From Candidatus Woesearchaeota archaeon (GTDB lineage: Archaea; Nanobdellota; Nanobdellia; Woesearchaeales; JAGVZT01), in contig JAANXH010000043.1 of the NCBI GenBank assembly GCA_018263355.1, positions 443 through 64,442 on the forward strand: a DNA stretch of 64,000 nucleotides, given 5' to 3'. The notes beneath the pieces are model-generated. The model saw only the letters and a program-made list of their open reading frames with translations, did not search any database and had not been told where the DNA came from. How positions within the stretch are numbered: position 1 is the stretch's first letter; the number at the start of each line of letters is the position of its first letter. Of this stretch, positions 1,404 to 31,851 are shown piece after piece. Both the position numbers and the translations under genes were made by a program.

Positions 1404-1814
1404 GTAAAGAAAATCTGCTGTTCAGAGCTAATCTCACTCCCCTTTGGTCCGTTCCTGAGTTGCTCTGGCAACCATACTCACTTCATTACATTTCGTTCCA
1501 GGGTTGCTCTGGCAACTTATCTCCCACCTAAATGTCGGAAAACAAAGTTTTCTGATCATCATCAGAAATTTAAAATTTCTGAGAGGTGGGAGCTTTTACG
1601 CTCTTCACTTTGATAAGCAGATATACTCACTAACGTTCCAGACATTTAGCTGTGCTAAATGTAAGTTCACTTCGTTCGTTACCTTTAGCAAGCTAAAGGT
1701 TTTCAGACTCCAGAAGCGAGGCTTATGGATGCCGAACAAAACACGAATGTGTGGAGTGACTGCATCATAATGCTACGGGCTAAAGCCCGGGGATTTAGAC
1801 CCATCGCATTCTGA
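1404..1814 (-). mobile_element. Non-autonomous palindromic element copy A (411 bp), IS200/IS605-like ends
   Basis: Shares terminal and core blocks with 8180-8317 and, inverted, with 31281-31802. Subterminal hairpin CGGGCTAAAGCCCG; GTAAAGA at both junctions; no transposase ORF. Confidence 0.7.
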
Positions 1815-1870
1815 GTAAAGATTATTTTATAAAATGTGGGTCATGGAATAAATATTGCAGGTGAGTAAAA

Positions 1871-2197
1871 ATGAAAAAACTACAAACAATTATGGAGCAG
1901 ATCTCAGGTAATTCTGTTAGATTTGATAAAATTTTACAAGATATAGTTAAGTTTGGACAATCTTTTGACAATCCTGTGATCTGGTACAGAGGTCATGGAA
2001 TAAATATTGCTAGTGAGGAAAATGGTTATTTCAACTCAGGAGGTGTTGGATTTGAAGGGTTGGCACCTTTAGTTGCTGCTCATGGCAAAAAGCACGATAA
2101 TGCAATTCAAACTGAAATTTGCAAAGTCAAGGAAGAATCTAATCTATTAATAGAATTTAGAGAAGAATGGGCAAGAGGCAACTCAGGAAGAGATTGA
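1871..2197 (+). CDS. Hypothetical protein
   Basis: GGTGA RBS at 1860; first 27 nt identical to the start of the gene at 719. Confidence 0.65.
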   Translation: MKKLQTIMEQISGNSVRFDKILQDIVKFGQSFDNPVIWYRGHGINIASEENGYFNSGGVGFEGLAPLVAAHGKKHDNAIQTEICKVKEESNLLIEFREEWARGNSGRD

Positions 2198-2198
2198 T

Positions 2199-2636
2199 TT
2201 GAGATATCATGAATTACTGCTCTCAAAAGTCAGAAATACACTATCCTACAATCCAAATCAAGAAGATTATGGATTTCCAATTTCTTTTCAATCACGGCTT
2301 GAAAAAAATTATTCACGTTTTGATCATGATGAAAAAAATAAACCCAAGCAATCTGCAACAATCACTTTAGGTGTAAGTTCAAGTAATAGGCAAGAGCAAA
2401 AAATTCTTATTAGAAAGGTTCTGCAATATCTTAACAAAGTCCACAAGATTCCACAAGAAAATATGAGTAAACCAGAATTATATAGAATAGAACCAGAGAT
2501 TACATTAACATTATACAACACAAAAGATATGGCCCTTGAAGAGAGAATTGCTGCATTTGATGAAAAGATTGAATTTATTAAATCTTGTTTGGATAAAGGA
2601 GGCCAATTCTGTTTAACTAAATATTATGGCAAGTAA
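2199..2636 (+). CDS. Hypothetical protein
   Basis: 145 aa ORF abutting the previous gene; TTG start. Confidence 0.6.
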   Translation: MRYHELLLSKVRNTLSYNPNQEDYGFPISFQSRLEKNYSRFDHDEKNKPKQSATITLGVSSSNRQEQKILIRKVLQYLNKVHKIPQENMSKPELYRIEPEITLTLYNTKDMALEERIAAFDEKIEFIKSCLDKGGQFCLTKYYGK

Positions 2637-2742
2637 ATAATTTTTCTTTTTCTGAAAATCTTTCGAACTTTCCAGAAACTTTCCGGAAAAACCACCAAAA
2701 TGTCTTTTAAACCAAAAAAAAGAGTTATATTTGGTGAGCGGG

Positions 2743-3351
2743 ATGACAGTTGCACTTGAAAGTATTATGGGAGACATTGCAGATTATAAAACAAGTTCAA
2801 ATAGATTAGAACAAAAAATACTGAGTATAGAAAATATTATTGATTCTATTGATAGATCCATAGATATGAGATTTATCAATAAAAGATCAATTGAAATTTC
2901 TCCTAAGTATTTACAAAGATTAAAGCAAGATAGAGGATATAGAAAACTAGTAAAGAAATTTATGAAATACTGCCCAGGTTATGAACATATGGATGGCTGC
3001 TTGGAATATTCAGCAAAAACACTAGAACTCATTGCAGAGTTTAATGGTAAGTCAGAAGATGCTGTAAGTCTGTTAGATACGCTTCGCAGTTTTAGTTTTG
3101 AGGAACAGTTAGTACCATTTAAAGTATTTCATATCTTTGAAGAGCTAAGTGAGACCTGTGGATCAAGAAATGACTTCAATGGTGGGATAAATTACTTTAA
3201 AGAAGTATATTCAAGAAGTGATAAAAAGGAGGGACACCATATTCTCCCTGGTTACTCAAACCTCCCACTAGATCACGAGAATATTTTCCATAGTTATAGT
3301 AGATACAAAAAAGGTGAAAAATGGTTGGGTTACAAACTGGGTTACATATAA
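2743..3351 (+). CDS. Hypothetical protein, paralog of 719..1309
   Basis: Track ORF 2731..3351; ATG 2743 follows a GGTGA RBS; shared core with 719..1309. Confidence 0.7.
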   Translation: MTVALESIMGDIADYKTSSNRLEQKILSIENIIDSIDRSIDMRFINKRSIEISPKYLQRLKQDRGYRKLVKKFMKYCPGYEHMDGCLEYSAKTLELIAEFNGKSEDAVSLLDTLRSFSFEEQLVPFKVFHIFEELSETCGSRNDFNGGINYFKEVYSRSDKKEGHHILPGYSNLPLDHENIFHSYSRYKKGEKWLGYKLGYI

Positions 3352-3493
3352 TGTGTAATCTTCACTACAACATAACCTTATATAGAAAATCATCTAAATA
3401 AACAGTAAGAAATTCAAAATAAGCAGAAGTATTCTGCTTTAAGGGGATGATTTAGATCTTTATAATTAGCGATAGCTTTAGAGGTGGAAAAAA

Positions 3494-3907
3494 GTGGATA
3501 AAAAAATGAAAATATTAGGAAATTTAAGAAATGATGCAAGACAAAGTCTTGTAAGTATTTCAAAAAAAACAGATATTCCAGTAAGCACAATTTATGAGAA
3601 AATAAAAAAACAAGAAGACTCTACAATTAAAAGGTACACTTCTTTGCTTGATTTTCCTGCTTTGGGTTTTAACATAAGAGCAATGGTTTTAGTCAAAGGT
3701 GATTTAGAAGAATATCTAACAAATCACGAAAATGTAAATTCTGTTTTTCAGTTGAGTGAAGAGTTTGATTTCATAGCAGATTGTATTTTCAAACATATGT
3801 CAGACTATACTGAATTTATTCAGAAACTGGAAAACAAAAAGGTGTTTTTTGTAACAAACGAACTGAAAAGAGAGGAATTTCTTAGTATAAGGAGGGAGAA
3901 AAAATGA
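3494..3907 (+). CDS. Lrp/AsnC family transcriptional regulator
   Basis: N-terminal HTH (LRNDARQSLVSISKKTDIPVSTIYEKIKK), LDFPALGF linker and C-terminal RAM-like domain. Confidence 0.85.
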   Translation: MDKKMKILGNLRNDARQSLVSISKKTDIPVSTIYEKIKKQEDSTIKRYTSLLDFPALGFNIRAMVLVKGDLEEYLTNHENVNSVFQLSEEFDFIADCIFKHMSDYTEFIQKLENKKVFFVTNELKREEFLSIRREKK

Positions 3908-4431
3908 AAAAATTAAATGCAAGACAGAAATTGGTTGCACAACTTGCAGGTGCAGTTATTGTTGGTGGCGTGATAGTTGGAGGAGTAAATTATGCAATAA
4001 ATAACTCAGATAATGCACTAGCAAAACCTGCTATGGCATTGGAGACCAAACTAATTGGGGTTGAGCCTGGGAATTATGTTGATGTAGCAACAGCATATAT
4101 TGCTCAAAACCCACAAGATATGGAGCAGTATGCAGAAAATCTTACAACTTTTTTGTATGCAGCTAATGAAGCTGATCTTCTGACTGAAGATGCGAAAACA
4201 TATTTTTTTACTGATGCTGCACAAGATATTCCAGCAGATTTAGCAGGAAGAGTTTGCAGTGAAAATGTTCTGCCAAGAATAAGTGAAGAACAACAATTAG
4301 AATATGTAATGGCAGGGATGATGGAATTAGACAGCAAAGAGTATGGTCCATTGCTAAAACAAATGGGTATTAGTCTAAAAGACGATGTCTTAGAGGATAT
4401 CAAAGGGTGGTGGGAATCTTATGGGAATTAG
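3904..4431 (+). CDS. Membrane-anchored hypothetical protein
   Basis: N-terminal hydrophobic helix (LAGAVIVGGVIVGGV); ATGA overlap with the Lrp gene. Confidence 0.7.
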   Translation: MKKLNARQKLVAQLAGAVIVGGVIVGGVNYAINNSDNALAKPAMALETKLIGVEPGNYVDVATAYIAQNPQDMEQYAENLTTFLYAANEADLLTEDAKTYFFTDAAQDIPADLAGRVCSENVLPRISEEQQLEYVMAGMMELDSKEYGPLLKQMGISLKDDVLEDIKGWWESYGN

Positions 4432-4630
4432 GAAAAGATTGTTGACATATGCAGTTGTTCTTGCAATTGGTTACAATATAGGTAGCTGCATTACAAAAGC
4501 TGAATATAATCAGCATACTCAAAGTGCAGAAACTACATACATAACAACTGATGTTGAAAATATTCAGTCTTTAGACAATCTGACAAAATTACCACAAGCA
4601 GAGAGGAGAATAGAGGATCTTATTCCATGA
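4421..4630 (+). CDS. Small membrane protein
   Basis: 69 aa, N-terminal TM helix, translationally coupled on both sides. Confidence 0.6.
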   Translation: MGIRKRLLTYAVVLAIGYNIGSCITKAEYNQHTQSAETTYITTDVENIQSLDNLTKLPQAERRIEDLIP

Positions 4631-5127
4631 ACACAACCAAGAAAGGAGCAATGCTTGAAATTTATGTTAAGCAATTGTTCAAAGACTTGTGTAAGCTAAA
4701 GGTTAGGAGAAATGTGCAGTATAGATGCAAGGGAGTTTTGACTAACAAAAACAAAAGAGCTCAGATTGATGTTGAATTTTGGGATCTTAAGGGTAAAACC
4801 ATTGTGGAATGTAAGTATTATGGTTCAAGTAAGGTTTCAGTAACTGATGTTGATGAGTTTTACCAGAGGTCAAAACTTGTCAGACATACTAGAAAAATAA
4901 TGGTTACTAACACATGTTATACACAAGGAGCAGTGAACACAGCAAAAGAACATGGAATAAGACTGATTGATGCAGACCAATTAAAGAAAATGGATTATGA
5001 ACGATTAAGTTTAGTAGGAATGATAAAAGACAGACTTGGCAAAAGAAAAAGTCTTGATGAACAGATAAAGGATGCTGACCTAAGGAATTATGGAGAATAC
5101 TACTCAGCAAAACAATATTTAGTGTGA
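4627..5127 (+). CDS. Mrr-like (PD-(D/E)xK) restriction endonuclease domain protein
   Basis: QIDV...IVECKYY catalytic motif; downstream V...DV..F, IMVTN, YT..A..A..GI.LID pattern typical of Mrr_cat. Confidence 0.75.
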   Translation: MNTTKKGAMLEIYVKQLFKDLCKLKVRRNVQYRCKGVLTNKNKRAQIDVEFWDLKGKTIVECKYYGSSKVSVTDVDEFYQRSKLVRHTRKIMVTNTCYTQGAVNTAKEHGIRLIDADQLKKMDYERLSLVGMIKDRLGKRKSLDEQIKDADLRNYGEYYSAKQYLV

Positions 5128-6170
5128 GGAGGATGAAAATGCAAGAAGAATTAGTTCAAGAAACAATGGTTCATGGAACAGATTTTGATTTAGATAGATT
5201 TGAACAAGCTAATAGTGAAGTTGAACGTCATGTTATGCATGGCGCATCTGAAAGCTCAACAATAAGAGCTGAGGTTGATGAATTAAATCAAGAAACAATA
5301 CAAACTGCAGCTGAGCAAAGAACAGAGAGTCCAATAGTTCAATGGTTTTTGAAAACATATTGGACTCTAACAAATACTGATGCTGTCCAGCTAACAAAAA
5401 AACTATCTAAGGACATAGAGGGAGTTTTAAAGCAGAGCAAAAAAGACCTAAGTTCAATTGTTACTGACATAAACAGAAGCAGAAGGGAGGAGGAAAAGCA
5501 TTTGGAAGATCTTGGAGATCTTGCACAAACTCATAGAACTTTTAAGTATGCAAAACAAGGGTATAGGCAACAGATAGATGAAATTGATTCTTTAGTTGCA
5601 GCCAGATCTAATGGTGGAAATACTCAATCCCTTGAATTAAAAACCTTACCTGAGAAATTCTATGAATTTAGTTTAAGGGAGCTTAAAAGGACAAGAGGAG
5701 AAATTGAAACAAAAATGATGACAACAGACATTGAACTGCAATCTATATATAGTGATATCAGAATTATTGGGGGACAAATCAAAGCAGCTGAAAAGACTAC
5801 TTTGAGACATATTTCACAGTATAATCAAGCATTGTCAAATAGAAATAGGACATTAGAGCATCATATAAAAGTGTATGAGCCTCAATATGTTAAATTAATA
5901 GAAAGACAAGCAAAAATTGCTGAAACAGAAGAACAATCTGAGATTGTAATTAACCAATACCTAAAGGTTTGCGAGTCTTTAGTAAAAGGAGTGGATGAGA
6001 GAAGACACTTATTGTTGTCCTCCTACCAGGCACAATTTGATGATACAAGAGATGCAGAAAGAGCAAGAAAAAGTATTGACAAAGCATTTGATACTCAGAT
6101 TGAAAATGGGAGAATTGGTGGAGAAAAACTACAAAGTGATGCTGAAGCTGTCATGAATCAATATTTGTAG
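5124..6170 (+). CDS. Coiled-coil hypothetical protein
   Basis: 348 aa, E/K/Q-rich helical composition; likely start ATG about 5133 after GGAGG. Confidence 0.7.
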   Translation: MRRMKMQEELVQETMVHGTDFDLDRFEQANSEVERHVMHGASESSTIRAEVDELNQETIQTAAEQRTESPIVQWFLKTYWTLTNTDAVQLTKKLSKDIEGVLKQSKKDLSSIVTDINRSRREEEKHLEDLGDLAQTHRTFKYAKQGYRQQIDEIDSLVAARSNGGNTQSLELKTLPEKFYEFSLRELKRTRGEIETKMMTTDIELQSIYSDIRIIGGQIKAAEKTTLRHISQYNQALSNRNRTLEHHIKVYEPQYVKLIERQAKIAETEEQSEIVINQYLKVCESLVKGVDERRHLLLSSYQAQFDDTRDAERARKSIDKAFDTQIENGRIGGEKLQSDAEAVMNQYL

Positions 6171-6202
6171 TTTTTTATTTTTTTATTTTTTTTGGAGGAA
6201 AA

Positions 6203-7621
6203 ATGATAAAACTAGAATTAACTCAAGAGCAAATTGAAAAAAGATCATTTGATTTGGAAAGCAGGATTAATGGGTTTTCTTTTAAAATAAAAGATAAGTT
6301 AATTTCAGCTGGAAAAAAGCTAGAGGACTCAAGTTCTGAAAGCGCAGTCTCAGCTATTTATTCTGGTTTCTCCATATTGGATTTGATTTGGCATTCAGTT
6401 GTAAAAACCCATAGAAAAGAAAGTATTGTTGGCATATTAACTGCTGCATATATCGGGGCTGATTATGGTCTGTACAATCTTACTGCCAAAAAAACAGGTC
6501 GAATTAAATCAATGTCAAGAAATGTTTTTTCTGGTAAACAAATTGATTTTAATCAAACTTATCCTTATCCACTAGATGATTTACTTGATATATATTCCAA
6601 TGGAGTTGACGAGTACAAAAATGCTGGGCTGTCAAATATCACAGAACAATTCTTTAACTGGGTTAAAAATAGAGTTATTGTAGAGAGTAGCAAGTATCCT
6701 GAAATAAAAGAGCAACTACAAGATGTTAGAGGTAATATTGACCAGATTTATTCTTTTAGAGGTATTTCTTCAAAAGTAAAAAGGAGTGTTGATAAGTCAA
6801 ACAAACTTATCTGGAATAAATTTGGAGGATATCATAATGTGGTTGATTACCTTAAAACACAGGCAAAATTTATTCAAAATTTTGATTATTTGATCTCTTT
6901 GGATGTTTTAGATCATGGAGATCTTTTACCCAAAGCTACTATTTTACATGGTCCTCCAGGTACTGGAAAAACAACCTTATTAAGGATATTTTGCAATGAA
7001 GCAGGTCTTCCATATGAGATGTTTAGCTGCAGTGAAATAGGAAGCCAGTATGTTTTTGGAAGCTCAATAAATATTCAAAATTATTTTGATGAAGCTGCTA
7101 GTTATATTAAAAGAAAAGAAAGTAAATTTGCATTAGTTGTTATTGATGAACTTGATGCACTTGGAAGAAAACGTGCCTATAAATCAAATGGAAGCAATGA
7201 AGACAATAAACTTGTAACAACAATATGTGAGAATTTAGATGGTCATCTTGCAGTAGATGGAGTTTTAGTGTATGGATTAACAAATATGGGAGATGTGCTT
7301 GATCCTGCCTTAACTCGACCTGGAAGGTTTGAAACATGGCTTGAGATGGGTTTTCCAAATAGAAAAGAGCTTAATGAGATATTCAGTATATATCTTGCGG
7401 GTAGGGGAGTTGGAAAAGTTGATGTTGAACATATAATCAACAAATATGTGGATTTAAAGTGGACTGGAGCTCTTGTTGAGAAAGTTGTAATTGATGCAAA
7501 AAGAGCAAAACTAGATAATCATCTGGATGGACAAGAACAATATTTGATTAATACTGATGATGTTTGCAAGCAGATTGAATTATATCAAAGAAGAGATCTT
7601 AATAAAAAATGGCTGGAATAA
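6203..7621 (+). CDS. AAA+ ATPase (classical CDC48/FtsH/Vps4-type single module) with unknown N-terminal domain
   Basis: Walker A GPPGTGKT, Walker B VVIDELD, SRH TN...LDPALTRPGRF. Confidence 0.85.
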   Translation: MIKLELTQEQIEKRSFDLESRINGFSFKIKDKLISAGKKLEDSSSESAVSAIYSGFSILDLIWHSVVKTHRKESIVGILTAAYIGADYGLYNLTAKKTGRIKSMSRNVFSGKQIDFNQTYPYPLDDLLDIYSNGVDEYKNAGLSNITEQFFNWVKNRVIVESSKYPEIKEQLQDVRGNIDQIYSFRGISSKVKRSVDKSNKLIWNKFGGYHNVVDYLKTQAKFIQNFDYLISLDVLDHGDLLPKATILHGPPGTGKTTLLRIFCNEAGLPYEMFSCSEIGSQYVFGSSINIQNYFDEAASYIKRKESKFALVVIDELDALGRKRAYKSNGSNEDNKLVTTICENLDGHLAVDGVLVYGLTNMGDVLDPALTRPGRFETWLEMGFPNRKELNEIFSIYLAGRGVGKVDVEHIINKYVDLKWTGALVEKVVIDAKRAKLDNHLDGQEQYLINTDDVCKQIELYQRRDLNKKWLE

Positions 7622-9456
7622 AACAAAAGAATTGGTTTGAAGTTCAGAGTATGCTAGCTAATGATGATGACCTTATTAAAAAAGTATGTAGTGGGTTTTC
7701 TTCTTACTCTGAGCAGATAAATAGTATAAAAGATCAACCTCTAAGTAAATCGTCTGTTGACAAGATTGTATATCTCACACAAGAGTTAGACGAGTGTTTT
7801 GCAATTCCAGAAAAGTACAGCTGGGTTTATAACCTGGACGATATTGTATTAGGAGCATCTGAAAAAATAAATAAGATTGGTCAACTAAAAGATGAGTTTT
7901 TCAATTCTTTGGATTATTTTTTTGATGAGTTGTCACAGGGATGGGATTCTGCAAAAAAAAGGGTTGAATCTTGGGAGAGAAAATATGGGATAGAAGATCT
8001 ATTAGATTCAAGAGATAAACTAAATTCATTTGCAGAAACATATGATTTATTATTTACACGATTAGGTCAGGATCATCCTATTCTTAATGCACGAATGATC
8101 AGTCAAATTCAAGATTATGTTCAATTTTTAGATGATTTTTCAAATGTGGATGTAGTTTACTTTGAGTTTAAAAACAAATGTAAAGAAAATCTGCTGTTCA
8201 GAGCTGATCCCCCACATAAAGGTGGGAGCTTTTACGCTCTTCACTTCGACACGCAGATTTTCAGACTCAAAAGTCCTCGCCCTAAAGGGCGGGGCTTTAG
8301 ACCCACGGACATTTTGAGTAAAGAACTTGATTCTAAAACAAAACAAGAGCTAAATGTATTAGGCAGAGAATTGAAAAAAATTAGAAAGACCTATGACAAA
8401 ACTTGTGCAAAACATAGGCCTTTTTTTGACAAGCTTAAGCAAAACTCAATATTTGCATATAAGGAGAGATTTATTGATATGCAAGAGCTTGACAAAAGGA
8501 TTGATTATCTTAAGAAAAATGTACAAAATATAGATATTGCACAACAGGATTTAGATGAATGGATTGATTATTATCAACAAACTCTGGATTATTTATCTGA
8601 AGAAAATGAAATTGAAAAAAGTCACATTGAATGGGTTGCTGACTGCAGTACAACAACTCCAAAGATAGTAGAGGATTGGGAAAATAATATATATGTTGCA
8701 GAAAAGATTGGACAAGTAAGTGCATTAAGAAAAGTTGTACATAATAGAGTAGAACAAGAATTAAATAGAATTAAAACTTATTTGGATTCAAGTTTAGATG
8801 ATTTTTCTGACTTGCCTAGTGATACAATTGATCTTGAAGAAAGACTAGAAGAATTACATCAATTCAAAATAATGTACAAACTTATTGGTGAGCCTACACT
8901 TGAGTGTGAAAAAGTACATGAGAAAATCGAGGCCAAGATCAGACAGTCCAAAATTCCCAAAACAATTGCTCAAACTACAAAAAAACCAAGCTCAGTACAA
9001 CAAGATAATATGCCCTATTGGAAACCAATTATTAGAAATCAGAGTGGATATTTTGATATTGCAACCCATTTATTAACAATTGGTTTTCCATCAGGCACAT
9101 ACATGAATATTATGAATACTATGCTTGGAAAAAACAATCAAGGTAGCTGGGCAGAAAAACTTAGAACAGTAAGCCAAGATCTGGAAGATTTACCTATTGC
9201 AGGTTCTCTTCAAGATTTAGATTATATGTATCATTTAGAATATGCTCTTAGGGAAAGTATGAATAGAGGAAATATGGATCATTTAGTTAGCAGAAATAGT
9301 CAAGGATGGAAATTAGCACATCAAGTTTTAAATCAATTAAATAAATACATTTCCATAAGTGAGGACAACATAGGGTTATCTGCAAAACAAATTGAGCTTA
9401 GAAAGCCTGTAACTGGTCCAGAAAACACATACAACCCCAGTTTGGCACTGTATTAG
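7609..9456 (+). CDS. Helical/coiled-coil hypothetical protein carrying a 46-aa in-frame element insertion
   Basis: 615 aa ORF; codons at 8180-8317 derive from the repeat element. Confidence 0.7.
   Translation: MAGIKQKNWFEVQSMLANDDDLIKKVCSGFSSYSEQINSIKDQPLSKSSVDKIVYLTQELDECFAIPEKYSWVYNLDDIVLGASEKINKIGQLKDEFFNSLDYFFDELSQGWDSAKKRVESWERKYGIEDLLDSRDKLNSFAETYDLLFTRLGQDHPILNARMISQIQDYVQFLDDFSNVDVVYFEFKNKCKENLLFRADPPHKGGSFYALHFDTQIFRLKSPRPKGRGFRPTDILSKELDSKTKQELNVLGRELKKIRKTYDKTCAKHRPFFDKLKQNSIFAYKERFIDMQELDKRIDYLKKNVQNIDIAQQDLDEWIDYYQQTLDYLSEENEIEKSHIEWVADCSTTTPKIVEDWENNIYVAEKIGQVSALRKVVHNRVEQELNRIKTYLDSSLDDFSDLPSDTIDLEERLEELHQFKIMYKLIGEPTLECEKVHEKIEAKIRQSKIPKTIAQTTKKPSSVQQDNMPYWKPIIRNQSGYFDIATHLLTIGFPSGTYMNIMNTMLGKNNQGSWAEKLRTVSQDLEDLPIAGSLQDLDYMYHLEYALRESMNRGNMDHLVSRNSQGWKLAHQVLNQLNKYISISEDNIGLSAKQIELRKPVTGPENTYNPSLALY
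8180..8317 (-). mobile_element. Minimal element copy C (138 bp), in frame within a CDS
   Basis: Same core as copies A and B; hairpin CTCGCCCTAAAGGGCGGG; GTAAAGA at 8180 and 8318; removal restores ...NKCKELDSK.... Confidence 0.75.
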
Positions 9457-9765
9457 TGTGACTGATGGTGTTCAGAATTCGTCTGTGCCGTGAATGACAT
9501 GAAATGACCTTTTTTGTTATGAATCCATGGCCAGGCGTAGTTTTTCTGCAGGAAAAAAGGAGTAGGATTTTGGACATCATCAGTTTGTAGCACTGCCCTC
9601 AGTTTACATGGCAACCAGTTTTATCACTAAAAAAGAAAAACATATATATATGTAATATATATCTCTAAATATAAGAGGTGTATATGTTTTTGGTGAATAT
9701 ATGCCAACAAAAATTGTTCATAACAAGACTTATTCTACCAAAAAGAATGGCGCAAGGGGAGGGGT

Positions 9766-13049: not shown

Positions 13050-13312
13050 GCGAAAAAGATGAAGGAAAAAGGCTTGATGACATTATGCTGGGTATCCAAC
13101 ATTATTCCCCTACTCAAATTAAAGCTAATAATATGAGAAAAAAATCTGTACCAATTGTAAAGTGGGCTTTAGCAGGGATTGCTTCAATTGCATTGGTTAT
13201 TAGCGGGTTTTTTATTGAAAAAAATTATGATGTTCTTAGCAACTTAGCTAAAGAGCCAGTTTTAGAGACTACACCTGCTAGGGGTGAACCAACACGGACT
13301 CTATTGTTTTAG
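13046..13312 (+). CDS. Small single-TM protein
   Basis: Central TM helix WALAGIASIALVISGFFI; coupled to the previous gene. Confidence 0.65.
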   Translation: MSEKDEGKRLDDIMLGIQHYSPTQIKANNMRKKSVPIVKWALAGIASIALVISGFFIEKNYDVLSNLAKEPVLETTPARGEPTRTLLF

Positions 13313-13360
13313 AGGAAATTGTCAGTAGTGCTGACAAATCCCAGTAAATATTGATTAAAA

Positions 13361-16500: not shown

Positions 16501-16503
16501 AGA

Positions 16504-18531: not shown

Positions 18532-18581
18532 ATTAAATTTTTCCAAAACTATTTTAATATAAGTTAATTTTTGGTATAAAC

Positions 18582-22665: not shown

Positions 22666-22882
22666 AATTGTTATATAGAATTTAAAATGATTTATGGTAA
22701 CTTTACCGGAAGATTTACGAGTTGTACTTATGATTTAAAAATCTAGCTTTTCAAATTCAATTAATACAAATCTTTTAATAAAATTCATAACATTTATAAC
22801 TAATAACTAAATAAAAACTAATAGAAATATATTAATATTAGAATTACTATTGGAAGAATAACTAAAAAGGGGTGTTATTAAA

Positions 22883-24154
22883 ATGAATAAAATAATTTTG
22901 TGCTTCTTACTTTTTTCAATATTATTTATGGTTGGATGTAAAACAGGGAATATAGTTGTTGCTAGAACACGGGGAGTTAATGCTGAAAAAATAGAAGAAG
23001 TTGTTAGCGGCAACAATAAATTTGCTTTTGATTTGTATGATGAATATAAATCTAGTGATGAAAATATTTTATTCTCACCTTATGTTATCTCAAATGCTTT
23101 AGCTATGACTCACGAAGGTGCTCGAGGACAAACTGCTCAAGAAATACAATCTGTTTTGTATCTCCCAAAAAAAGATATAAGAAGACCTGCTTATGCTAAA
23201 ATATTTAATTCTTTGAGAAAAAGAAAGAAATATGAAATTTCTACTGCGAATGCTATATGGGTTCAAAAGGATTATACTTTGACTAATGAATATTCTAAAG
23301 TATCTGTTAGATATTATGGAGGTAGAACTGAGAATGTTAATTTTGCTGAAAATAACACAAAGAGAAAGTTAGATAGATTTATTGAAGGAGAAACAAGTGG
23401 GTACATAAAAGAAATTATTCCTGAAAAATCTATTGGACCAAAAACCAAAATGGTATTAACCAATGCTATTTACTTTAATTTTATTTTGTCTGATAATATC
23501 TATAGAAAAAATACATCAAAAAAAGAATTTGTAACCCTAGATAACTCAAAAGTAGATGTTCCAATGATGAGCTTGACTGGAATTGAAGCTAATCTTAAAT
23601 TTGGAGAGAATAAAGATATTCAGATAATTAAACTACCATATAAAAATAAAGTAGTACTTACCTACTTTGCACCAAATATGCAGATATTTGAACTACCTTA
23701 TGGAAATAAAACATTATCCACATATATAATCTTACCTAAACAGGGCTTAGCTGAAGTTGAGTCTAAACTAAATCCTAAAAACTTTAAATTATGGAAACAG
23801 ATGATGAAAAAACAAGATATAAACATATATATTCCCAGATTTGAATTAGAATCTGACCAATCTATGATTCCAGCTTTGAAAAATATGGGTATGTCTAATG
23901 CATTATCAGAAAATGCAGATTTTTCTGGAATTGATGGTTCAAAAAACCTTTTTATTAATGATATTTTTCATAAAGTTTTAATTAATTTCAATGAAACAGG
24001 AATCACACCAGTTAAATTTGCTCCAATACAATCAAATACAACATCAAACAGGTCAGTAACTACATTTAATGCAGATCATGCTTTTTTATTTATTATACAA
24101 GATGAAAAGACTGGTCTAATATTACTTATGGGAAGAGTATCTGATCCTAGCTAA
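22883..24154 (+). CDS. Serpin family protein with lipoprotein-type signal
   Basis: NNKFAFDLY, NILFSPY, LTNAIYF, LPY, F.ADHAFLFII...ILLMGRV motifs; lipobox-like VGC. Confidence 0.9.
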   Translation: MNKIILCFLLFSILFMVGCKTGNIVVARTRGVNAEKIEEVVSGNNKFAFDLYDEYKSSDENILFSPYVISNALAMTHEGARGQTAQEIQSVLYLPKKDIRRPAYAKIFNSLRKRKKYEISTANAIWVQKDYTLTNEYSKVSVRYYGGRTENVNFAENNTKRKLDRFIEGETSGYIKEIIPEKSIGPKTKMVLTNAIYFNFILSDNIYRKNTSKKEFVTLDNSKVDVPMMSLTGIEANLKFGENKDIQIIKLPYKNKVVLTYFAPNMQIFELPYGNKTLSTYIILPKQGLAEVESKLNPKNFKLWKQMMKKQDINIYIPRFELESDQSMIPALKNMGMSNALSENADFSGIDGSKNLFINDIFHKVLINFNETGITPVKFAPIQSNTTSNRSVTTFNADHAFLFIIQDEKTGLILLMGRVSDPS

Positions 24155-24165
24155 GGAAGGGTTTA

Positions 24166-25071: not shown

Positions 25072-25076
25072 TTGTC

Positions 25077-25313
25077 TTAATCAAGTTTAAGCAGCTGGTC
25101 GATTTTGGATTTATTAAAACCAACTATTACTTCATCATCTATCATAATAACTGGAACTCCCATTTGTCCTGATTTTTCAACCATTTCTTTTCTAGCTTCT
25201 AGATCTTCTGCCACATTCTTTGCTTCAAATTCTATTTTTTTTTCTTTGAAGTAATCTTTTGCTTTAGTGCACCAAGGACAGGTTGGTGTTGAAAAAACTT
25301 TAACTTTTGCCAT
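25077..25313 (-). CDS. Glutaredoxin (NrdH/YruB-like)
   Basis: CPWC active site, GVPVI, VGF. Confidence 0.9.
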   Translation of the reverse strand: MAKVKVFSTPTCPWCTKAKDYFKEKKIEFEAKNVAEDLEARKEMVEKSGQMGVPVIMIDDEVIVGFNKSKIDQLLKLD

Positions 25314-25315
25314 TT

Positions 25316-25414
25316 TTACCTCCTTGTGAATACTTCACATTCACACTTCTCTTCATTACATTTACATACTGTACATATTAATTTTTCCCCTACTTTTGTG
25401 CATGCTTCCTTCAT
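25316..25414 (-). CDS. Small Cys-rich peptide (32 aa)
   Basis: Not in track. MKEACTKVGEKLICTVCKCNEEKCECEVFTRR, six Cys, GGGGTGA RBS 4 nt upstream, stop overlaps the glutaredoxin RBS. Confidence 0.6.
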   Translation of the reverse strand: MKEACTKVGEKLICTVCKCNEEKCECEVFTRR

Positions 25415-25424
25415 GATTTCACCC

Positions 25425-25512
25425 CATTACATTCAGTTCCTGAGTTGCTCTAGCAACTAATCTCACTTCGCTTTGCTTCGTTCGTGAGTTGCTCTAGCAA
25501 CTAATCTCACTT
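25425..25512. repeat. Stand-alone tandem 44-bp-period hairpin module
   Basis: TGAGTTGCTCTAGCAACTAATCTCACTT at 25441 and 25485; the same module at the same period lies inside elements A (1459/1503) and B (31639/31683). Confidence 0.8.
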
Positions 25513-25992
25513 TCTTTTACTTAATCTCCTATCTAAAACCATTAATGCAGGTTTCGTCTGTCCAACCATTTTTAATTTTTGCACTATCTCATCTGCAGAA
25601 GCTTCTTCTTCAACTTGTTCTTCTACAAACCATTGCAAAAAGTTTTCAGTTGCATGGTCTTTTTGTTCTCGTGCTAAATCAACTAGAAAATTAATTCTTT
25701 TTGAAATATGCAGCTCATGATTATAAGCAGCTTTCATTGTCTCTAATGGATTATCCCATTTGAAATTTGGTTTTTTTATCTCTGCAAGTTTCACTCTGGC
25801 TCCTCTCTCATTAATATAACTGAATATTTTCATTGCATGCTCTATTTCTTCATCTGCTTGTTTTCTCATCCAGTGTCCAAATCCACTTAAACTAAGGGAT
25901 TCAAAATAAGCAGACATGGATAGATAAATATAAGCTGATGCTAATTCTTCGTTTATCTGATTGTTTAACTCTTCTAATACTTTTTTGTTCAT
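25507..25992 (-). CDS. ftn: Non-heme ferritin
   Basis: QINEELASAYIYLSMS, EE.EHA, FLQWFVEEQVEEE ferroxidase motifs. Confidence 0.92.
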   Translation of the reverse strand: MNKKVLEELNNQINEELASAYIYLSMSAYFESLSLSGFGHWMRKQADEEIEHAMKIFSYINERGARVKLAEIKKPNFKWDNPLETMKAAYNHELHISKRINFLVDLAREQKDHATENFLQWFVEEQVEEEASADEIVQKLKMVGQTKPALMVLDRRLSKRK

Positions 25993-26003
25993 TTTGACCT
26001 CCT

Positions 26004-26555
26004 TTAATCAGTTTTTATTGTATCTTGTCCTGGCTCCCAATTTACAGGGCATACAGATCCTGAATGTTTGCTAATGAATTTTGCAGCTTTTATTTTCCTA
26101 AGAATCTCTGGTATGCTCCTTCCCATACCATTATCATGAAACTCAAATGCTCTTATATTCTGCTCAGGGTCTATAATAAATGTTGCTCTAATACTTAAAC
26201 CCTCATTTTGAATTAATGTGTCATACGCTTTTGTGACCCTTGTTGCTGGGTCTGCAAGCATAGGATATTTTATCTTGGCTATAGCCTCTGAATTTTCATG
26301 CCATGCTTTGTGTACAAAGGCTGTATCTGTACTTACACTTATGACTTCTGCATCTAATTTTTTGAAATCTTCATATCTGTTTGCTAATTCTTCTAATTCT
26401 GTTGGACAAACAAATGTAAAGTCAGCTGGATAAAAAAACAATACTATCCATTTACCTTTGTAATCATCTAAGCCAATTTTTTTTATTTTTCCATTTACAA
26501 AAGCATCCTCTCTAAATTGCGGCGCTTTATCTCCTATTTTAATCATTTTTTCCAC
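26004..26555 (-). CDS. ahpC: 2-Cys peroxiredoxin
   Basis: FYPADFTFVCPTE and VCP motifs. Confidence 0.92.
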   Translation of the reverse strand: MEKMIKIGDKAPQFREDAFVNGKIKKIGLDDYKGKWIVLFFYPADFTFVCPTELEELANRYEDFKKLDAEVISVSTDTAFVHKAWHENSEAIAKIKYPMLADPATRVTKAYDTLIQNEGLSIRATFIIDPEQNIRAFEFHDNGMGRSIPEILRKIKAAKFISKHSGSVCPVNWEPGQDTIKTD

Positions 26556-26556
26556 C

Positions 26557-26805
26557 TCAAAATTCTATCTTAATCTTTCCTTGTTTTATTTTGCATTGAC
26601 ATGCTAATCTTTGGTTATTATCCATATCCATTTCTTTTTTTGTTAATTTATTTAGGTTTTCTGCTCCCTCAAGCACATTGATTTTACATGAGCCATAAAA
26701 ACCTGAGTAGCAGCCAAAGACAACTCCCAATTTTTCACAAACTGGGGTGATTTTACTGTTATCTTTGACTTCTATCTCTTTTTCGTTTGCAATTATTGTT
26801 GCCAT
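26557..26805 (-). CDS. 2Fe-2S ferredoxin-like protein (one Cys ligand replaced by Tyr)
   Basis: FGCYSGFYGSC and RLACQ motifs. Confidence 0.75.
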   Translation of the reverse strand: MATIIANEKEIEVKDNSKITPVCEKLGVVFGCYSGFYGSCKINVLEGAENLNKLTKKEMDMDNNQRLACQCKIKQGKIKIEF

Positions 26806-27395
26806 TTTTCAAGATTTTTATCAACTGCTTGCCAGTTGATTATCTTAAAGAAATTCTCAACATATTCTGCTCTTTTGTTTTGATAGTTAAGGTAATATGC
26901 ATGTTCCCAAACATCAAGCAATAACAAAGGTTTTAGCCCTTTTGTTAATGGATTGTCTTGGTTTGGAGTGTTCATTACCTTTAGCTTATCTTTATCTAAA
27001 ACAAGCCATGCCCACCCACTTCCAAATCTGCTTAGTGCTACCTTTGTAAACTCTTGTTTGAATTTATCAAAACTACCAAACTGATCTTTAATCATTTCAG
27101 CGGTTTTTCCTGTAAATTCCTGATCTTTTTTTAGAATTTTCCAGAACATAGAGTGGTTTAAATGTCCTCCTCCTGCTCTTCTCACAGTTGTTTTAATCTC
27201 TTGTGGAACCTGATCTAGATTTTTTATTAATTCCACCACTTCTTTTTTTTGCAGTTCAGGATTGTTTTCCAAAGCTTTGTTAAACTTGTTGAAATAACCC
27301 TGGTGATGCTTAGAATGATGTATCCTCATTGTTTTCTCATCTATATATGGTTCTAATGCATCGTATGCATAATCTAATTTTTTTATTTTAGCCAT
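26793..27395 (-). CDS. sod: Fe/Mn superoxide dismutase
   Basis: YDALEP, HHSKHH, NHSMFW, FGSGW.WL, DVWEHAYY; ATG 27395 follows GGAGGTGA. Confidence 0.95.
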   Translation of the reverse strand: MAKIKKLDYAYDALEPYIDEKTMRIHHSKHHQGYFNKFNKALENNPELQKKEVVELIKNLDQVPQEIKTTVRRAGGGHLNHSMFWKILKKDQEFTGKTAEMIKDQFGSFDKFKQEFTKVALSRFGSGWAWLVLDKDKLKVMNTPNQDNPLTKGLKPLLLLDVWEHAYYLNYQNKRAEYVENFFKIINWQAVDKNLEKWQQ

Positions 27396-27470
27396 TTGAT
27401 TCACCTCCACATAAAAGTCCTGCAGGAAAAAGGTGCTAACCTACAGATACTTTTACTTATCTAATATTAT

Positions 27471-27611
27471 TTAATAATATACCATTTTTTGAAATAACTC
27501 TTTGTCAATTTCATTTATTATTGGATCTCTGTCAAATACTTTGTCCATTTTTGTTATTATCTCTGTTTGATCTATACATTTTCCTTTATTGCATTGAATT
27601 TTTTGTTTCAT
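27471..27611 (-). CDS. Small hypothetical protein (46 aa)
   Basis: Not in track. MKQKIQCNKGKCIDQTEII...MVYY with a GAGGTGA RBS; fills the gap between the DUF1858-like gene and sod. Confidence 0.45.
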   Translation of the reverse strand: MKQKIQCNKGKCIDQTEIITKMDKVFDRDPIINEIDKELFQKMVYY

Positions 27612-27840
27612 TTATAATCACCTCAAAGTTTGTTTTATGTATTAATGTTGATAGTTCAGTTGTTAATTTGTCAATATCAATTTCATATGATTTTGCGCAT
27701 TGCTCAACTGTTTCCCATGTTGCAATACAACAGCCCATACATGGAATACCATATTCAGATAGTATTTGCACAGACTTAGGATATTTTTTTATCAGATCTG
27801 CCATAATCATATTTTTTATCATCTTATGATATATTAACAA
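27586..27840 (-). CDS. DUF1858-like (hybrid-cluster-associated disulfide domain) protein
   Basis: ADLIKKYP.....L..YGIPCMGC..A..ET.E pattern. Confidence 0.75.
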   Translation of the reverse strand: MLIYHKMIKNMIMADLIKKYPKSVQILSEYGIPCMGCCIATWETVEQCAKSYEIDIDKLTTELSTLIHKTNFEVIINETKNSMQ

Positions 27841-27944
27841 TGAAAGATATATAAAAGTAACCCAGATATAATATAAGTTTAGTTCGTTATTGACCTATTA
27901 AATATAGGTAAAATATTTATATGAGAAGCTTTTTTATATAAATT

Positions 27945-28508
27945 ATGGTCAAAAAAAATAAAACTTTTTTAAGAATTCAAGAATTTGACAAAAAAATAGG
28001 GCTCAAAAAAAAACTGAATTTAGATAAGAGAGATAATGTAATTATATCAATGCTGCAGCAAAACCCAAATGTTTCACAAGAAGAGATAGGTAAAAAAATA
28101 AAACTTTCACAGCCTTCTGTTGGTGCAAGATTAAAAAAACTTGAAAACAAGGGAATTCTTCAAAGTATTAATGGAGTGAATTTCAGGGTTGTTGATTTAA
28201 GCCTTGGTTTGGTACAGGTAAATAGTACAGATACAGCTGCTATTATCAGTGAGTTTAAGGATTGTCCTTTTTTTCTTAATGCCCTAATTACTTCTGGTCA
28301 ACATAATTTAACATTATTGTTTATGGCTACTGACCTGAAAAGATTAGAAGGAATAGTAAATCATCATTTAAGGGGAAATTCCAAGGTAAAAGATGTACAG
28401 TTAAATATTGTGATTTCAACTGCTAAAGATTTTGTACTCCCACTTAATATTGATTATGAAAACAAGGATCAGTTAGAATGTAATCAGGACTGTGAGCATT
28501 GTATATAA
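27945..28508 (+). CDS. Lrp/AsnC regulator with Cys-rich tail, divergent from the redox operon
   Basis: LDKRD..II..L, LSQPSVGARLKKLE HTH; C-terminal CNQDCEHC. Confidence 0.85.
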   Translation: MVKKNKTFLRIQEFDKKIGLKKKLNLDKRDNVIISMLQQNPNVSQEEIGKKIKLSQPSVGARLKKLENKGILQSINGVNFRVVDLSLGLVQVNSTDTAAIISEFKDCPFFLNALITSGQHNLTLLFMATDLKRLEGIVNHHLRGNSKVKDVQLNIVISTAKDFVLPLNIDYENKDQLECNQDCEHCI

Positions 28509-28509
28509 G

Positions 28510-30543
28510 CTATTTCCTATAGCACTCCAATTCTTTTTCCTCATCCCCTATATAAGTGCAGTATTTTTTTGTAAAATTAGAATACTTCAGACGACAAGAT
28601 TCATCTCTACAATAATGAGGGTATCTTGTAATCTTAACTATTTGCTTACTGACCCTTTTGGCTTCAGTTGGTTTTAGATCCCGAGCCTTTCTCCCTATTT
28701 TTTCAGCTAAATACAGCTCATAACACTTTAGTCTCAAGGTTCTGCTAATTCTGTTTTCATTGTTATTGAATTTAAAAAAATCATTAGATATTTTTTCTTC
28801 ATTTGCATTCCACCAGGAGTTAGAACTAAATTCTTCCCATAATTGGACTCGCTTTAAACCACGCAGGATTCTATTTTGCATTTTTTCATTTAGTGAATCT
28901 CCTTTTCTATAATCAGTGAAAAAACCTGAATATCTTTTGTCATCTGTTTTTAAACTTGCATCGATTTCTGATAATAGCTTAATATTTAATTCAAGCTGTT
29001 TTTTGTGATCTTTCAAATTAGAGTGTCCATCATAAAAAATTGAATTGTTATTCTGATTAAAGATTATAGCACGATGCTCAAGCAGTGCAATATCTGTGTT
29101 TGTATGAGCAAACCGAGTTTTTATAGTATTTTTTTGTGCTTTTCTTGCAATAGCAATAATATTCTGTTCCAGTTCTCCAGTAAAAAAATATACAATTTTA
29201 TCATAAGCATTTAGATTTCTAAATAATTTAGCTTCTTGTTCATATACCATAAATCCTTTCAAACCTTCTTTATGAAGATTATTAAGCTCCTTTACAACCA
29301 ACAGATTCCGCAAGTCTGGTGTTTCAATCATATCACGTGATAGAATTTCTTCTTTGGTTAATTGTGGTAAAATAAATAAATCTATCTTTGTGTTATTTTC
29401 AATATAACTAAATGCAACAATAATATTCCCTTCTTTTTTTTTGGGTAGTTGTGAATACAGTGGAAGATTCTTGTTGAATTCAATTTTTTGACATTCTAAG
29501 TTAACATTGCAATTACCATAAATACTGCCCAGTTTGTCATTACTAAATTCTGGTAACATGCCTGACACAGAGTATGACTGAACAGTATATTTGTCAAATT
29601 TAACATAACCTTTTTGTTGCAGGATATAGTCATATCTGTGTAGATACAAGTAATCACCATTATTCTCAGATAAACGTGAAAGTTCTTGAGCATAATACAT
29701 TCCAAAAATTGCTAATGCCACAACGGCTGCAACAAAAAGAATTAGACCCAATCCAAAAGTACTGATATTTATTGATTTATGAACATTTGGTTTTTTACTT
29801 GAAAATATGTTCAAAATTCTAAATGGAAAATGTTTGAACCTAAAGTAAGCATTATAATCTAGCTTGCCAAAGACTCTTTTTAGCAGTTTTGTTGATATGA
29901 ATAAGTAGGAAAATGCAAGTAGCAAGAAGACAGGTATTGAGATCAAAATTAATGTAATCAAGGTATAAGGACTAATTAAAGGAACAATTACATATGAAAA
30001 GAATAATAAAATCAAGAGAATAACCATTTCGGTCAAGACAACAGATATAAAAAATACTAAATACACAGATTCAAACAAATAGCTTTTGTTTGATTTAAAA
30101 TAATAAAATGCTACAGGAATCAGTGCAATTAAAAAAAAAGGAACAAATAAAAGAAATACTAATTTGAATTGTACCCAAATTAATATCATAAAAGAGATTA
30201 TACTCCAAATCAGTACCAAAGACCTATGATGCCTGTTTAGAATGTCAAATATTACCACACATAACAAAGATAAGATTAAAACAATTATCCCATTAGTCAA
30301 TTGATTAAACGAGTAAGATATGAATAAAAACGAAATCAAAAAAGCAAACATAACAGGTAAGGATAAACTTTTAATAAATTTTAAAAGAGAAAAGTGTATC
30401 AAGCCAGAATCTGATTTTTTCATTGCTTTTCTGACATAATCCTTTGGATAACCTTTTTCTAACAAATACTTTTTTAATTGCTTATCTGAATAACCTTGAC
30501 TCTCTTCCCATTTTATCCAGTCCACCAGCTTTTTTAGTTTCAC
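28510..30543 (-). CDS. Multi-pass membrane protein with large soluble C-terminal domain
   Basis: 677 aa; about 7 hydrophobic helices in the N-terminal half. Confidence 0.7.
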   Translation of the reverse strand: MKLKKLVDWIKWEESQGYSDKQLKKYLLEKGYPKDYVRKAMKKSDSGLIHFSLLKFIKSLSLPVMFAFLISFLFISYSFNQLTNGIIVLILSLLCVVIFDILNRHHRSLVLIWSIISFMILIWVQFKLVFLLFVPFFLIALIPVAFYYFKSNKSYLFESVYLVFFISVVLTEMVILLILLFFSYVIVPLISPYTLITLILISIPVFLLLAFSYLFISTKLLKRVFGKLDYNAYFRFKHFPFRILNIFSSKKPNVHKSINISTFGLGLILFVAAVVALAIFGMYYAQELSRLSENNGDYLYLHRYDYILQQKGYVKFDKYTVQSYSVSGMLPEFSNDKLGSIYGNCNVNLECQKIEFNKNLPLYSQLPKKKEGNIIVAFSYIENNTKIDLFILPQLTKEEILSRDMIETPDLRNLLVVKELNNLHKEGLKGFMVYEQEAKLFRNLNAYDKIVYFFTGELEQNIIAIARKAQKNTIKTRFAHTNTDIALLEHRAIIFNQNNNSIFYDGHSNLKDHKKQLELNIKLLSEIDASLKTDDKRYSGFFTDYRKGDSLNEKMQNRILRGLKRVQLWEEFSSNSWWNANEEKISNDFFKFNNNENRISRTLRLKCYELYLAEKIGRKARDLKPTEAKRVSKQIVKITRYPHYCRDESCRLKYSNFTKKYCTYIGDEEKELECYRK

Positions 30544-30621
30544 AAATCCTTTTTTAATAAACTGACTTATAAGTTTTATGATTAAGTTTTATTTTTACAA
30601 GATAAAAAAGAGGTTTGGGTA

Positions 30622-31101
30622 TTATTTTGATGCTTTCTCTTTCCAGGAAGTATTTACTTTTTTTACTATTTTTACAAATTTAGGATCTAACTTATTGTTC
30701 CACAAATCTACTGCATCATCTATAAACTGTGCTTCTAGTTTTTTATCCTTTGTTAAACCTATAAGTGTGTTTCGAGAAACCAGTTCCATTATATCATTTA
30801 ATAAATTAATAATCTTCTGTTTTTCCTCATCTTCAAATATCTTGCTTTCTTTGACACTCATCATTGAGTTTGGGTTTGGGATTACTAAACCATGCAAATA
30901 TGACGTCCAGGAATTAAATGTTTTTGAGATTCTATGACATATCATTCTTGAAAGATTAGTGCTGACATATCCTTCATTTTGAATAAAATCTTTTAAAAAA
31001 AATATTTTCTCAAGATCTTGAAAACTAGATTTAAAGCCAAGTTCTTTTTTCATTTTATCAAATTCCTGCTCAAATTCATCCAATAACTTGCTGTTTGTCA
31101 T
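30622..31101 (-). CDS. Hypothetical protein
   Basis: Track ORF to 31227; real start probably ATG 31101 (MTNSK), about 31 nt from a TTTATATA box at 31133. Confidence 0.7.
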   Translation of the reverse strand: MTNSKLLDEFEQEFDKMKKELGFKSSFQDLEKIFFLKDFIQNEGYVSTNLSRMICHRISKTFNSWTSYLHGLVIPNPNSMMSVKESKIFEDEEKQKIINLLNDIMELVSRNTLIGLTKDKKLEAQFIDDAVDLWNNKLDPKFVKIVKKVNTSWKEKASK

Positions 31102-31143
31102 TATACTAATGGGAACTAAACTGAATATATAAATAATTCCCTT

Positions 31144-31851
31144 ATGGAAAGTCAAATTTGATGAGGAGAGCCAAAAGCAATACCTGATTGGTGAGCGAGA
31201 CCTCAACAATCGTAAGAAGCTATGCAAAACAGTTTGTCTTCTCTAAATTGGTATTAAAATTTGCTTGCTAACAATTTCACTCAGAATGCGTTGGGTCTAA
31301 ATGTCAGGACTGTTCGTCCTGATCATGCTCAGGAAGCTACGCTTCCCGACAGCCCCTGGCTTATCTCACTAGCGTTCCTAACACATAAATCCTAGATTTC
31401 TGGCTTTAGTCAGTAGCATTATAATGCAGTCACTTTACATATTCGTGCTATGTTCGGCATCCATAAGCTTTGCTTCTGGAGTCTGAAAAGCTATCGCAAG
31501 ATAGCTGCCGAGTGAACAAAGTGAACGAATGCATCTGCTTGTCAAAGTGAAGAGCGTAAAAGCTCCCACCTCTCAGAAATTTTAAATTTCTGATGATGAT
31601 CAGAAAACTTTGTTTTCCGACATTTAGGTGGGAGATAAGTTGCCAGAGCAACCCAGGAACGAAATGTAATGAAGTGAGTATGGTTGCCAGAGCAACTCAG
31701 GAACGGACCAAAGGGGAGTGAGATTAGTTAGAAGTGTAGCTTATAACCTTGGAATGTAGCGAAGCGGAATGAGTACGGCTCTGAACAGCAGATTTTCTTT
31801 ACAAACTGGCAAGCGAACAATATATTTTGGCAAACACATCAAACTTAACTC
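31144..31851 (-). ncRNA. Candidate structured RNA (about 185 nt) interrupted by element B; identity unknown
   Basis: TTTAAATA box about 30 nt upstream of G31851; a 15-bp terminal helix with three G-U pairs (31837-31851 with 31149-31163); nested helices across the insertion. Confidence 0.4.
31281..31802 (+). mobile_element. Element copy B (522 bp), inverted relative to A and C
   Basis: About 170 bp nearly identical to the reverse complement of copy A, plus shared termini (TCAGAATGCG.TGGGTCTAAA ... GCTCTGAACAGCAGATTTTCTTTAC) and extra hairpin inserts. Confidence 0.75.

Follow-up and report, generated by a model that had tools for sequence, protein, structure and literature searches.

A family of short palindromic elements, present in three copies (A, B and C) in a 64,000-nt stretch of a Candidatus Woesearchaeota genome (contig JAANXH010000043.1, positions 443 to 64,442; hereafter the window), is very probably a family of non-autonomous DNA transposons, by whatever mechanism it moves. 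It probably consists of protein-less, IS608-like transposons of the IS200/IS605 insertion sequence (IS) type, known as palindrome-associated transposable elements (PATEs), mobilised by a TnpA transposase through a single-strand mechanism. Two of the three copies, B and C, occur in natural populations as DNA polymorphisms, with filled and seamlessly empty alleles. The host is a 32% GC member of the Woesearchaeota (DPANN) from a marine population, and the window is contained in Logan contigs of eight marine metagenome runs (X1-X8) from one study. The strand on which the elements were first read is referred to as the top strand. The copies and the open reading frame (ORF) that hosts copy B were located as follows:

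Copy A, 1404-1814, minus strand: 411 bp, long composite form; intergenic, directly upstream of the TATA-like box of the gene at 1871-2197; stop codons in all six frames.
Copy B, 8180-8317, minus strand: 138 bp, minimal form; in frame within the ORF at 7609-9456, to which it adds 46 aa; 138-nt absence allele in run X6.
Copy C, 31281-31802, plus strand: 522 bp, long composite form; intergenic, upstream of the minus-strand gene at 30622-31227; stop codons in all six frames; empty allele (skip of 522 nt) in run X8.
ORF hosting copy B, 7609-9456, plus strand: 615 aa, 569 aa in the empty allele; an ORFan without homologues.

The three copies had been described in an earlier reading of the sequence (the original prediction), and their coordinates, lengths and shared blocks were recovered when rechecked in the window. 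The right-end 25-mer GCTCTGAACAGCAGATTTTCTTTAC occurs there exactly three times (at 1404 and 8180 on the minus strand and at 31778 on the plus strand), as does the core 24-mer GTGAAGAGCGTAAAAGCTCCCACC (1585 and 8221, minus; 31547, plus). Common blocks of 24-25 nt were expected zero times by chance from shuffled sequences. The further blocks TCA(G/A)AATG, GGGTCTAAA and GAGTCTGAAAA were found in 3/3 copies. The GC content of the copies is 0.43-0.49 against ∼0.32 for the genome and the window. Copy B folds as two adjacent long hairpins on either strand (z of -5.3 and -4.3); folding energy and G-U count are equal on both strands, and neither picks out a strand. At 138-522 bp the element is too short or too broken to encode a transposase, and no homologue was found for an 88-aa ORF inside copy A.

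At the locus of copy B, a contig of run X6 joins position 8179 to 8318, skipping exactly 138 nt, with 8 nt (GTAAAGAA) that fit either side. At 52 nt (22 + 8 + 22), the joining contig is as long as a bubble in a k = 31 assembly should be. Its depth is 15, against 40.9 for the filled branch and ∼48 for the flanks, and the empty allele represents ∼27% of the population. Independently, the predicted branch points, 8187 and 8318, are exactly where contigs end in two samples and where a contig begins in another; only the filled form of copy B was found in runs X1-X4. The empty allele stays in frame (…FKNKCKELDSK…). As the host ORF is an ORFan, there is no empty orthologue for comparison. At the locus of copy C, a contig of run X8 joins 31275 to 31798 (skip 522, side 58, depth 4.5) alongside a filled contig with a depth of 5.2. 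The empty site in X8 reads AATTTTAC followed directly by AAACTGG, with TTTTAC as the target, and run X7 contains a more distant strain with a diverged empty site for copy C. The empty alleles hold a single target site. Seamless polymorphism of this kind therefore points to recent insertion or precise excision.

The empty alleles bear directly on an RNA-level life cycle, which the original prediction had put forward. The element would in that case be a structured RNA, intron-like or excised in some other way, that is removed from mRNA; its in-frame copies would be left untranslated, and it might spread by reverse splicing or retro-homing. Such a cycle would suit the strong structure on the sense strand and the sequence at the boundaries, where the sense strand of every copy opens with GUAAAG and has GUAA or GUGA after its end. 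It would also suit the presence of RtcB and archease genes in the window and a 61-aa insert carried by glmS, a normally essential gene, near the N-terminal domain (a fourth copy of the element, described below). Each of the four oriented copies runs sense to its neighbouring gene; with only four copies (p about 0.125) this shared orientation does not amount to the rule that it had been taken for. Since alleles at two loci are empty in the DNA itself, removal at the RNA level is not needed as an explanation. Copies A and C lie upstream of promoter-like boxes without reading-frame constraint, each stopping ∼50 nt short of the next start codon and just upstream of a TATA-like box. The glmS insert sits at a short variable segment between blocks aligned with E. 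coli GlmS. That the two coding copies, B and the one in glmS, share a frame is what survivorship predicts: only two of the six frames of the minimal form are open, so that agreement between the two is a 1-in-2 event. No Rfam ribozyme or intron family was matched, and the boundaries of A, B and C have no consistent bulge-helix-bulge (BHB) motif. An RNA-level life cycle is therefore no longer maintained and is considered highly improbable.

An archaeal BHB intron, spliced by EndA and RtcB, was tried as a specific candidate in a scan of the boundaries of A, B and C. No motif was shared, and no candidate combined a full 4-bp central helix with more than 1 bp of both outer and inner helix.

Significance had also been attached to the divisibility of the three lengths by three. 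The lengths themselves were correct, but they carry no such meaning: other copies differ by 44, 95, 140 or 170 nt, and as A and C are intergenic with stops in all frames, the divisibility is a 1-in-9 coincidence.

The ends of the element were defined from eleven left flanks and from the right ends of all copies. Those of copy B, with the corresponding positions in A and C, are:

Target TTAC of copy B, 8318-8321, minus strand: 5' of the left end; GTAA on the plus strand.
Target tetranucleotides of copies A and C, 1815-1818 (A) and 31277-31280 (C, TCAC): 5' of the left end.
Left subterminal hairpin of copy B with guide, 8275-8298, minus strand: CCCCGCCC-TTTA-GGGCGAGG at 8275-8294; AAAG at 8295-8298, directly 5' of the foot; 23 nt from the left cleavage site.
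Right subterminal hairpin of copy B with guide, 8209-8232, minus strand: CTCCCAC-CTTTAT-GTGGGGG at 8209-8228; AAAG at 8229-8232, directly 5' of the foot; followed by 29 nt ending in TTAC.
Invariant right end GCTCTGAACAGCAGATTTTCTTTAC, 8180-8204, minus strand: ends in the element's own TTAC; identical at 1404-1428 and 31778-31802; no variants across ∼16x depth.

The left flank is TTAC in at least 8 of the 11 copies (A, B, the glmS copy, where it was deduced from the codons GGT and AAT, and at least five more) and TCAC in the other three (C and two others). Over five nucleotides the left flanks of A, B and C are TTTAC, TTTAC and TTCAC, as originally reported. Every copy terminates in the invariant ...GATTTTCTTTAC, beyond which the bases are unrelated (A, C or T), and the right end is ...TTTTCTTTAC whatever the target sequence. 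Because the right TTAC is constant where the left flank is TCAC, it is the element's own. The homology of the target with the right tip ranges from 4 to 8 nt among copies, and there is therefore no fixed-length duplication. Copy B is bounded by an 8-nt direct repeat, TTCTTTAC. This repeat is not a target-site duplication (TSD), in agreement with the original prediction for this copy, because its right-hand copy is the constant end sequence common to all elements, which the target only resembles. The target has a fixed polarity relative to the element and is not duplicated, as in IS200/IS605-derived elements.

The same flanks were weighed for a miniature inverted-repeat transposable element (MITE), moved by an unrelated transposase (DDE or other) or by a site-specific recombinase that targets TTAC and leaves a 4-bp TSD; the hairpins would then be incidental or regulatory. 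A MITE would account for TTAC on both sides of each copy and for the lack of any TnpA found, and the termini have a weak inverted similarity (TCAAAATGTCC versus AGAAAATCTGC, 7/11). The first two terminal bases differ, however (TC versus AG), the similarity is only 5/10 in copies A and C, and no convincing terminal inverted repeat (TIR) is formed. The target is non-palindromic and its polarity to the element is always the same, TCAC on the left is combined with TTAC on the right in three copies, and a target homology of 4-8 nt is unlike the product of a fixed staggered cut. A TIR-bearing MITE has a duplication of fixed length and variable sequence; the repeat found here is always the element's own TTTAC. 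A MITE also leaves unexplained the AAAG that precedes both hairpins. A MITE origin is considered unlikely.

Imperfect palindromes are present near both ends, with 8-bp stems and TTTA loops. AAAG lies directly 5' of both feet, followed by CCCCGCCC... on the left and by CTCCCACC... on the right. The left hairpin is 23 nt from the left boundary; the right hairpin is written AAAG, CTCCCACC-TTTA(T)-G(G)TGGGGG, then 29 nt ending in TTAC. A compensatory pair of changes was found in the left stem, where 8280 C>G occurs with 8289 G>C at equal depth. The pairing of this stem is kept as CGCCC/GGGCG in B, CGGGC/GCCCG in A and CTGGC/GTCAG in C, further copies have compensatory variants too, and the TTTA loops are constant while the stems vary. 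The hairpins are under structural constraint, and the subterminal hairpins of the original prediction are upheld at both ends.

Each guide of IS608 is the tetranucleotide immediately 5' of a hairpin foot; its left guide, AAAG, specifies TTAC as the left cleavage site, and excision and insertion are footprint-free (PMC3201880, PMC5934647). Cleavage takes place 19 nt 5' of the left hairpin and, at the other end, 10 nt 3' of the right one (PMC3201880, PMC5934647). Like IS608 (ISHp608, from Helicobacter pylori), the present family leaves no duplication when inserted 3' of TTAC, carries an imperfect palindrome near either end and has a 4-nt AAAG guide at the hairpin foot, with a spacing from left cleavage site to hairpin of 23 nt against 19 nt in IS608. 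Unlike IS608, it has neither tnpA nor tnpB and resides in a DPANN archaeal host. The right guide and cleavage site are GAAT and TCAA in IS608 but AAAG and TTAC here, so that both ends of the present element share one code. With AAAG at both guides and TTAC at both cleavage sites, the IS608 code is used in an internally consistent manner.

The mechanism proposed for an IS608-like PATE is as follows. Along the top strand the element would be laid out as TTAC in the left flank, the left end with ∼23 nt, AAAG and an 8-bp TTTA hairpin, then the interior, a second AAAG and 8-bp TTTA hairpin, and ∼29 nt ending in TTAC. A Y1 (HUH) TnpA, supplied in trans, would bind both hairpins on single-stranded DNA, and the AAAG guides would locate TTAC at the left flank and at the right tip. 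The top strand would be peeled out as a circle with the junction ...GCAGATTTTCTTTAC joined to TCA(A/G)AATG..., and the circle would be pasted 3' of another TTAC without duplication or footprint. Insertions into coding DNA would survive only where the frame stays open (two of six frames of the minimal form), and survival of open frames would have produced the 46-aa addition to the ORF at 7609-9456 and the 61-aa addition to glmS. Long copies would be the same element with its hairpins and guide invaded by smaller repeats. IS200/IS605 is the most widespread archaeal IS family, and the Nanobdellota carry all 27 annotated IS families (PMC13343696), which makes a trans-acting TnpA plausible. The new flanks, the guides and the empty alleles fit the non-coding, trans-mobilised element originally proposed, with IS200/IS605 (IS608-like) ends, insertion 3' of TTAC and no TSD, TnpA being the presumed transposase.

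Several observations weigh against this IS608-like mechanism. A Pfam scan detected no TnpA or TnpB among the 40 ORFs of the window, and none was found in the 10 kb beyond it. No longer element with these ends was found in the genome, metagenome or viral contig collections, and all assembly-graph branches leading inwards from the ends are 53 nt or shorter, with no copy with a long unique interior visible among them. The right hairpin lies 29 nt from the tip compared with 10 nt in IS608, and the left guide of copy A is AAAT instead of AAAG. Judged by sequence, most copies could also carry a 4-bp TTAC duplication, the right cleavage site being identical to the target. A distinctly unlikely reading dispenses with a resident Y1 TnpA. 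In it, an enzyme belonging to a virus or to the host organism, or an undescribed mechanism that targets structure in single-stranded nucleic acid, would mobilise the elements together with the 50-nt and 44-nt mini-repeats, which would home to the hairpin loops and guide of the elements. The reading can be taken further, such that the in-frame copies in glmS and the ORF at 7609-9456 would in addition be removed or bypassed in RNA.

The composite structure of the long copies was resolved into the following nested repeats:

Nested 52-nt mini-repeat (TCTCAG...CCGACA) in copy A, 1533-1584, minus strand: between the 5' arm and the TTTA loop of the right hairpin.
Nested 52-nt mini-repeat (TCTCAG...CCGACA) in copy C, 31571-31622, plus strand: at the same position of the right hairpin.
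Related 50-nt mini-repeat (TGTCAG...CCGACA) in copy C, 31302-31351, plus strand: splits the left guide into AAA and G.
Two tandem 44-nt hairpin modules in copy C (GTTGCCAGAGCAAC + CAGGAACG ... AGTGAG), 31639-31726, plus strand: between the right hairpin and the right end; the same pair is present in copy A at 1431-1523.

Copies A and C are minimal elements whose hairpins or guide took in these smaller repeats, and the expandable core of the original prediction is accounted for by the nested 50-52-nt repeats and 44-45-nt modules, in which copies differ. The 50-52-nt units consist of T(C/G)TCAG, two hairpins and CCGACA, and their ends pair 5/6 as inverted repeats. All three units sit at a hairpin arm/loop junction or within the AAAG guide, an SMR-A-like choice of site. 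One or two of the 44-45-nt modules lie between the right hairpin and the tip; the plus-strand module consensus is ATCTCACT, ∼11 variable nt and CGTTCCTGAGTTGCTCTrGCAAC. The number of module units differs among strains (skip of 44), some of the modules reach ∼33-39x flank depth, and assembly joints with skips of 44, 51, 95, 140 and 170 indicate that copies differ in module content.

A free-standing module pair (two units and a partial third) is present at 25416-25508, between a glutaredoxin-like ORF and a ferritin gene. The central segment of copy A (1634-1690) has zero contig depth in X1 and X4 and is held by X6; copy A may thus differ internally between samples.

PATEs of Haloquadratum walsbyi have no inverted terminal repeats, near-terminal palindromes, no target duplication and strain-specific insertions, and their palindromes are preferentially invaded by the small mobile repeats SMR-A (PMC3119063). 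The present family is likewise of non-coding length, with similar palindromes near both ends and composite, expandable forms that arise from nested small repeats. By analogy, the 50-52-nt mini-repeats resemble the SMR-A repeats that attack Haloquadratum PATEs, although SMR-A is ∼110 bp in length and the repeats here are 50-52 nt, accompanied by a 44-45-nt tandem module. The two families are unrelated in sequence and differ in lineage (Woesearchaeota here) and GC content and, unlike the Haloquadratum PATEs, two copies of the present family lie in frame inside genes.

Family size was estimated from the Logan contigs. The depth of the right end is ∼10-16x that of unique flanks, corresponding to ∼10-16 copies. 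Contigs break at the element, and the loose ends reveal unrelated flanks for at least 10 loci. No further copy was found within 10 kb beyond the window. A right-end 20-mer gave only chance matches, in unrelated genes, in GTDB species genomes and JGI metagenomes, and the core block and the module had no matches in IMG/VR viral contigs. A search with the 48-aa in-frame element peptide matched only its own protein among 1.84 billion representatives; two further matches to this peptide are unrelated repeat proteins. Apart from the runs of the study, the family is very restricted in distribution.

The sole other protein found to carry the element is the glmS product of a Candidatus Woesearchaeota metagenome-assembled genome (P0002). 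This fourth copy is a 61-aa version in the same orientation and frame as copy B, with the peptide KENLLFRA...GGxFYALHFDTQIFRLKSPRPKGRGFRPxDILS. The 15 aa beyond the copy B version correspond to one unit of the 44-45-nt module. In the comparison with E. coli GlmS, the insert lies at about residue 50. DNA matching the glmS copy (…TTCGTTTCTGAGTTGCTCTGGCAACTGAT) is present in the same runs.

Rickettsia palindromic elements (RPEs) are short palindromic repeats that persist in frame in protein-coding genes, where they add a peptide segment. To our knowledge their transposition mechanism has not been established and no TTAC/guide architecture has been described for them. The family shares with RPEs the addition of a peptide by an in-frame palindromic insert; there is no sequence relation, and most copies here are intergenic.

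The constancy of the right end, invariant over 25-30 nt in ∼16 copies, would also be expected of a domesticated or functional repeat, kept for a function of the host or of a nuclease. The repeat could be an orphan omegaRNA, that is a TnpB/IscB scaffold, as raised as a possibility in the original prediction, or a repeat of the repetitive extragenic palindromic (REP) type associated with REP-associated tyrosine transposases (RAYT). PATEs that retain an omegaRNA have been described. Against Rfam 15, transposon-associated RNAs included, no family reached its gathering score, and what appeared at E up to 10 was at chance level. Only ∼78 nt make up the right half of the minimal copy B, and neither tnpB nor iscB is present in the window. 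Presence/absence polymorphism and invasion by other repeats resemble parasitic turnover. The omegaRNA scaffold was accordingly dropped, and a domesticated repeat of either kind is considered very unlikely.

Other features of the window were recorded. Archaeal markers coded there are RtcB, archease, Orc1/Cdc6, an RLI-type ABC ATPase and genes of the LysW pathway; these markers, like the Woesearchaeota origin of the glmS protein, agree with the assignment of the host. The RtcB-archease pair is at 39214-41091 and the Orc1/Cdc6 gene at 36193-37260; at 2-kb resolution no GC-skew switch adjoining cdc6 is evident. A full-length serpin gene (Pfam Serpin, E 4.5e-94) is present at 22883-24154 of this DPANN genome.

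An island at 593-7621 contains paralogous gene cassettes (844-1096 versus 2847-3099, 74% identity), a post-gene 37-mer (1309-1345 versus 3355-3391, 95% identity) and the N-terminal motif MKKLQTIMEx, common to the genes at 719, 1871, 3904 and 6203. It also holds an Mrr-like nuclease, an AAA ATPase and a Ser/Thr kinase. The paralogous intergenic region at 3355-3500, taken as an empty-site proxy for copy A, diverges after 37 nt.

The intergenic stretch at 9457-9640, 3' of the ORF at 7609-9456, is GC-richer and has TGATG/CTGA-like boxes. All Logan contigs of the study break within ∼9473-9547, and the stretch is therefore polymorphic or present in repeated form; a small RNA gene or a further repeat family may lie here.

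The elements described here are a live but basically known kind of genome parasite and not an RNA-level element; no new mechanism is opened unless the transposase proves absent. They can be used as a marker of strain-level variation in these populations, and they explain GC-rich 'structured RNA-like' islands that gene and non-coding RNA finders would otherwise misread. They also lend themselves to a clean test of which transposase acts on elements of this kind when the genome itself may encode none. As PATEs of the IS200/IS605 type, they would add a DPANN archaeon with a tiny genome to the haloarchaea and bacteria in which such elements, and their invasion by smaller repeats, were known. The family has been caught in action, with two of three loci filled or empty in natural samples, one of them inside an intact reading frame.

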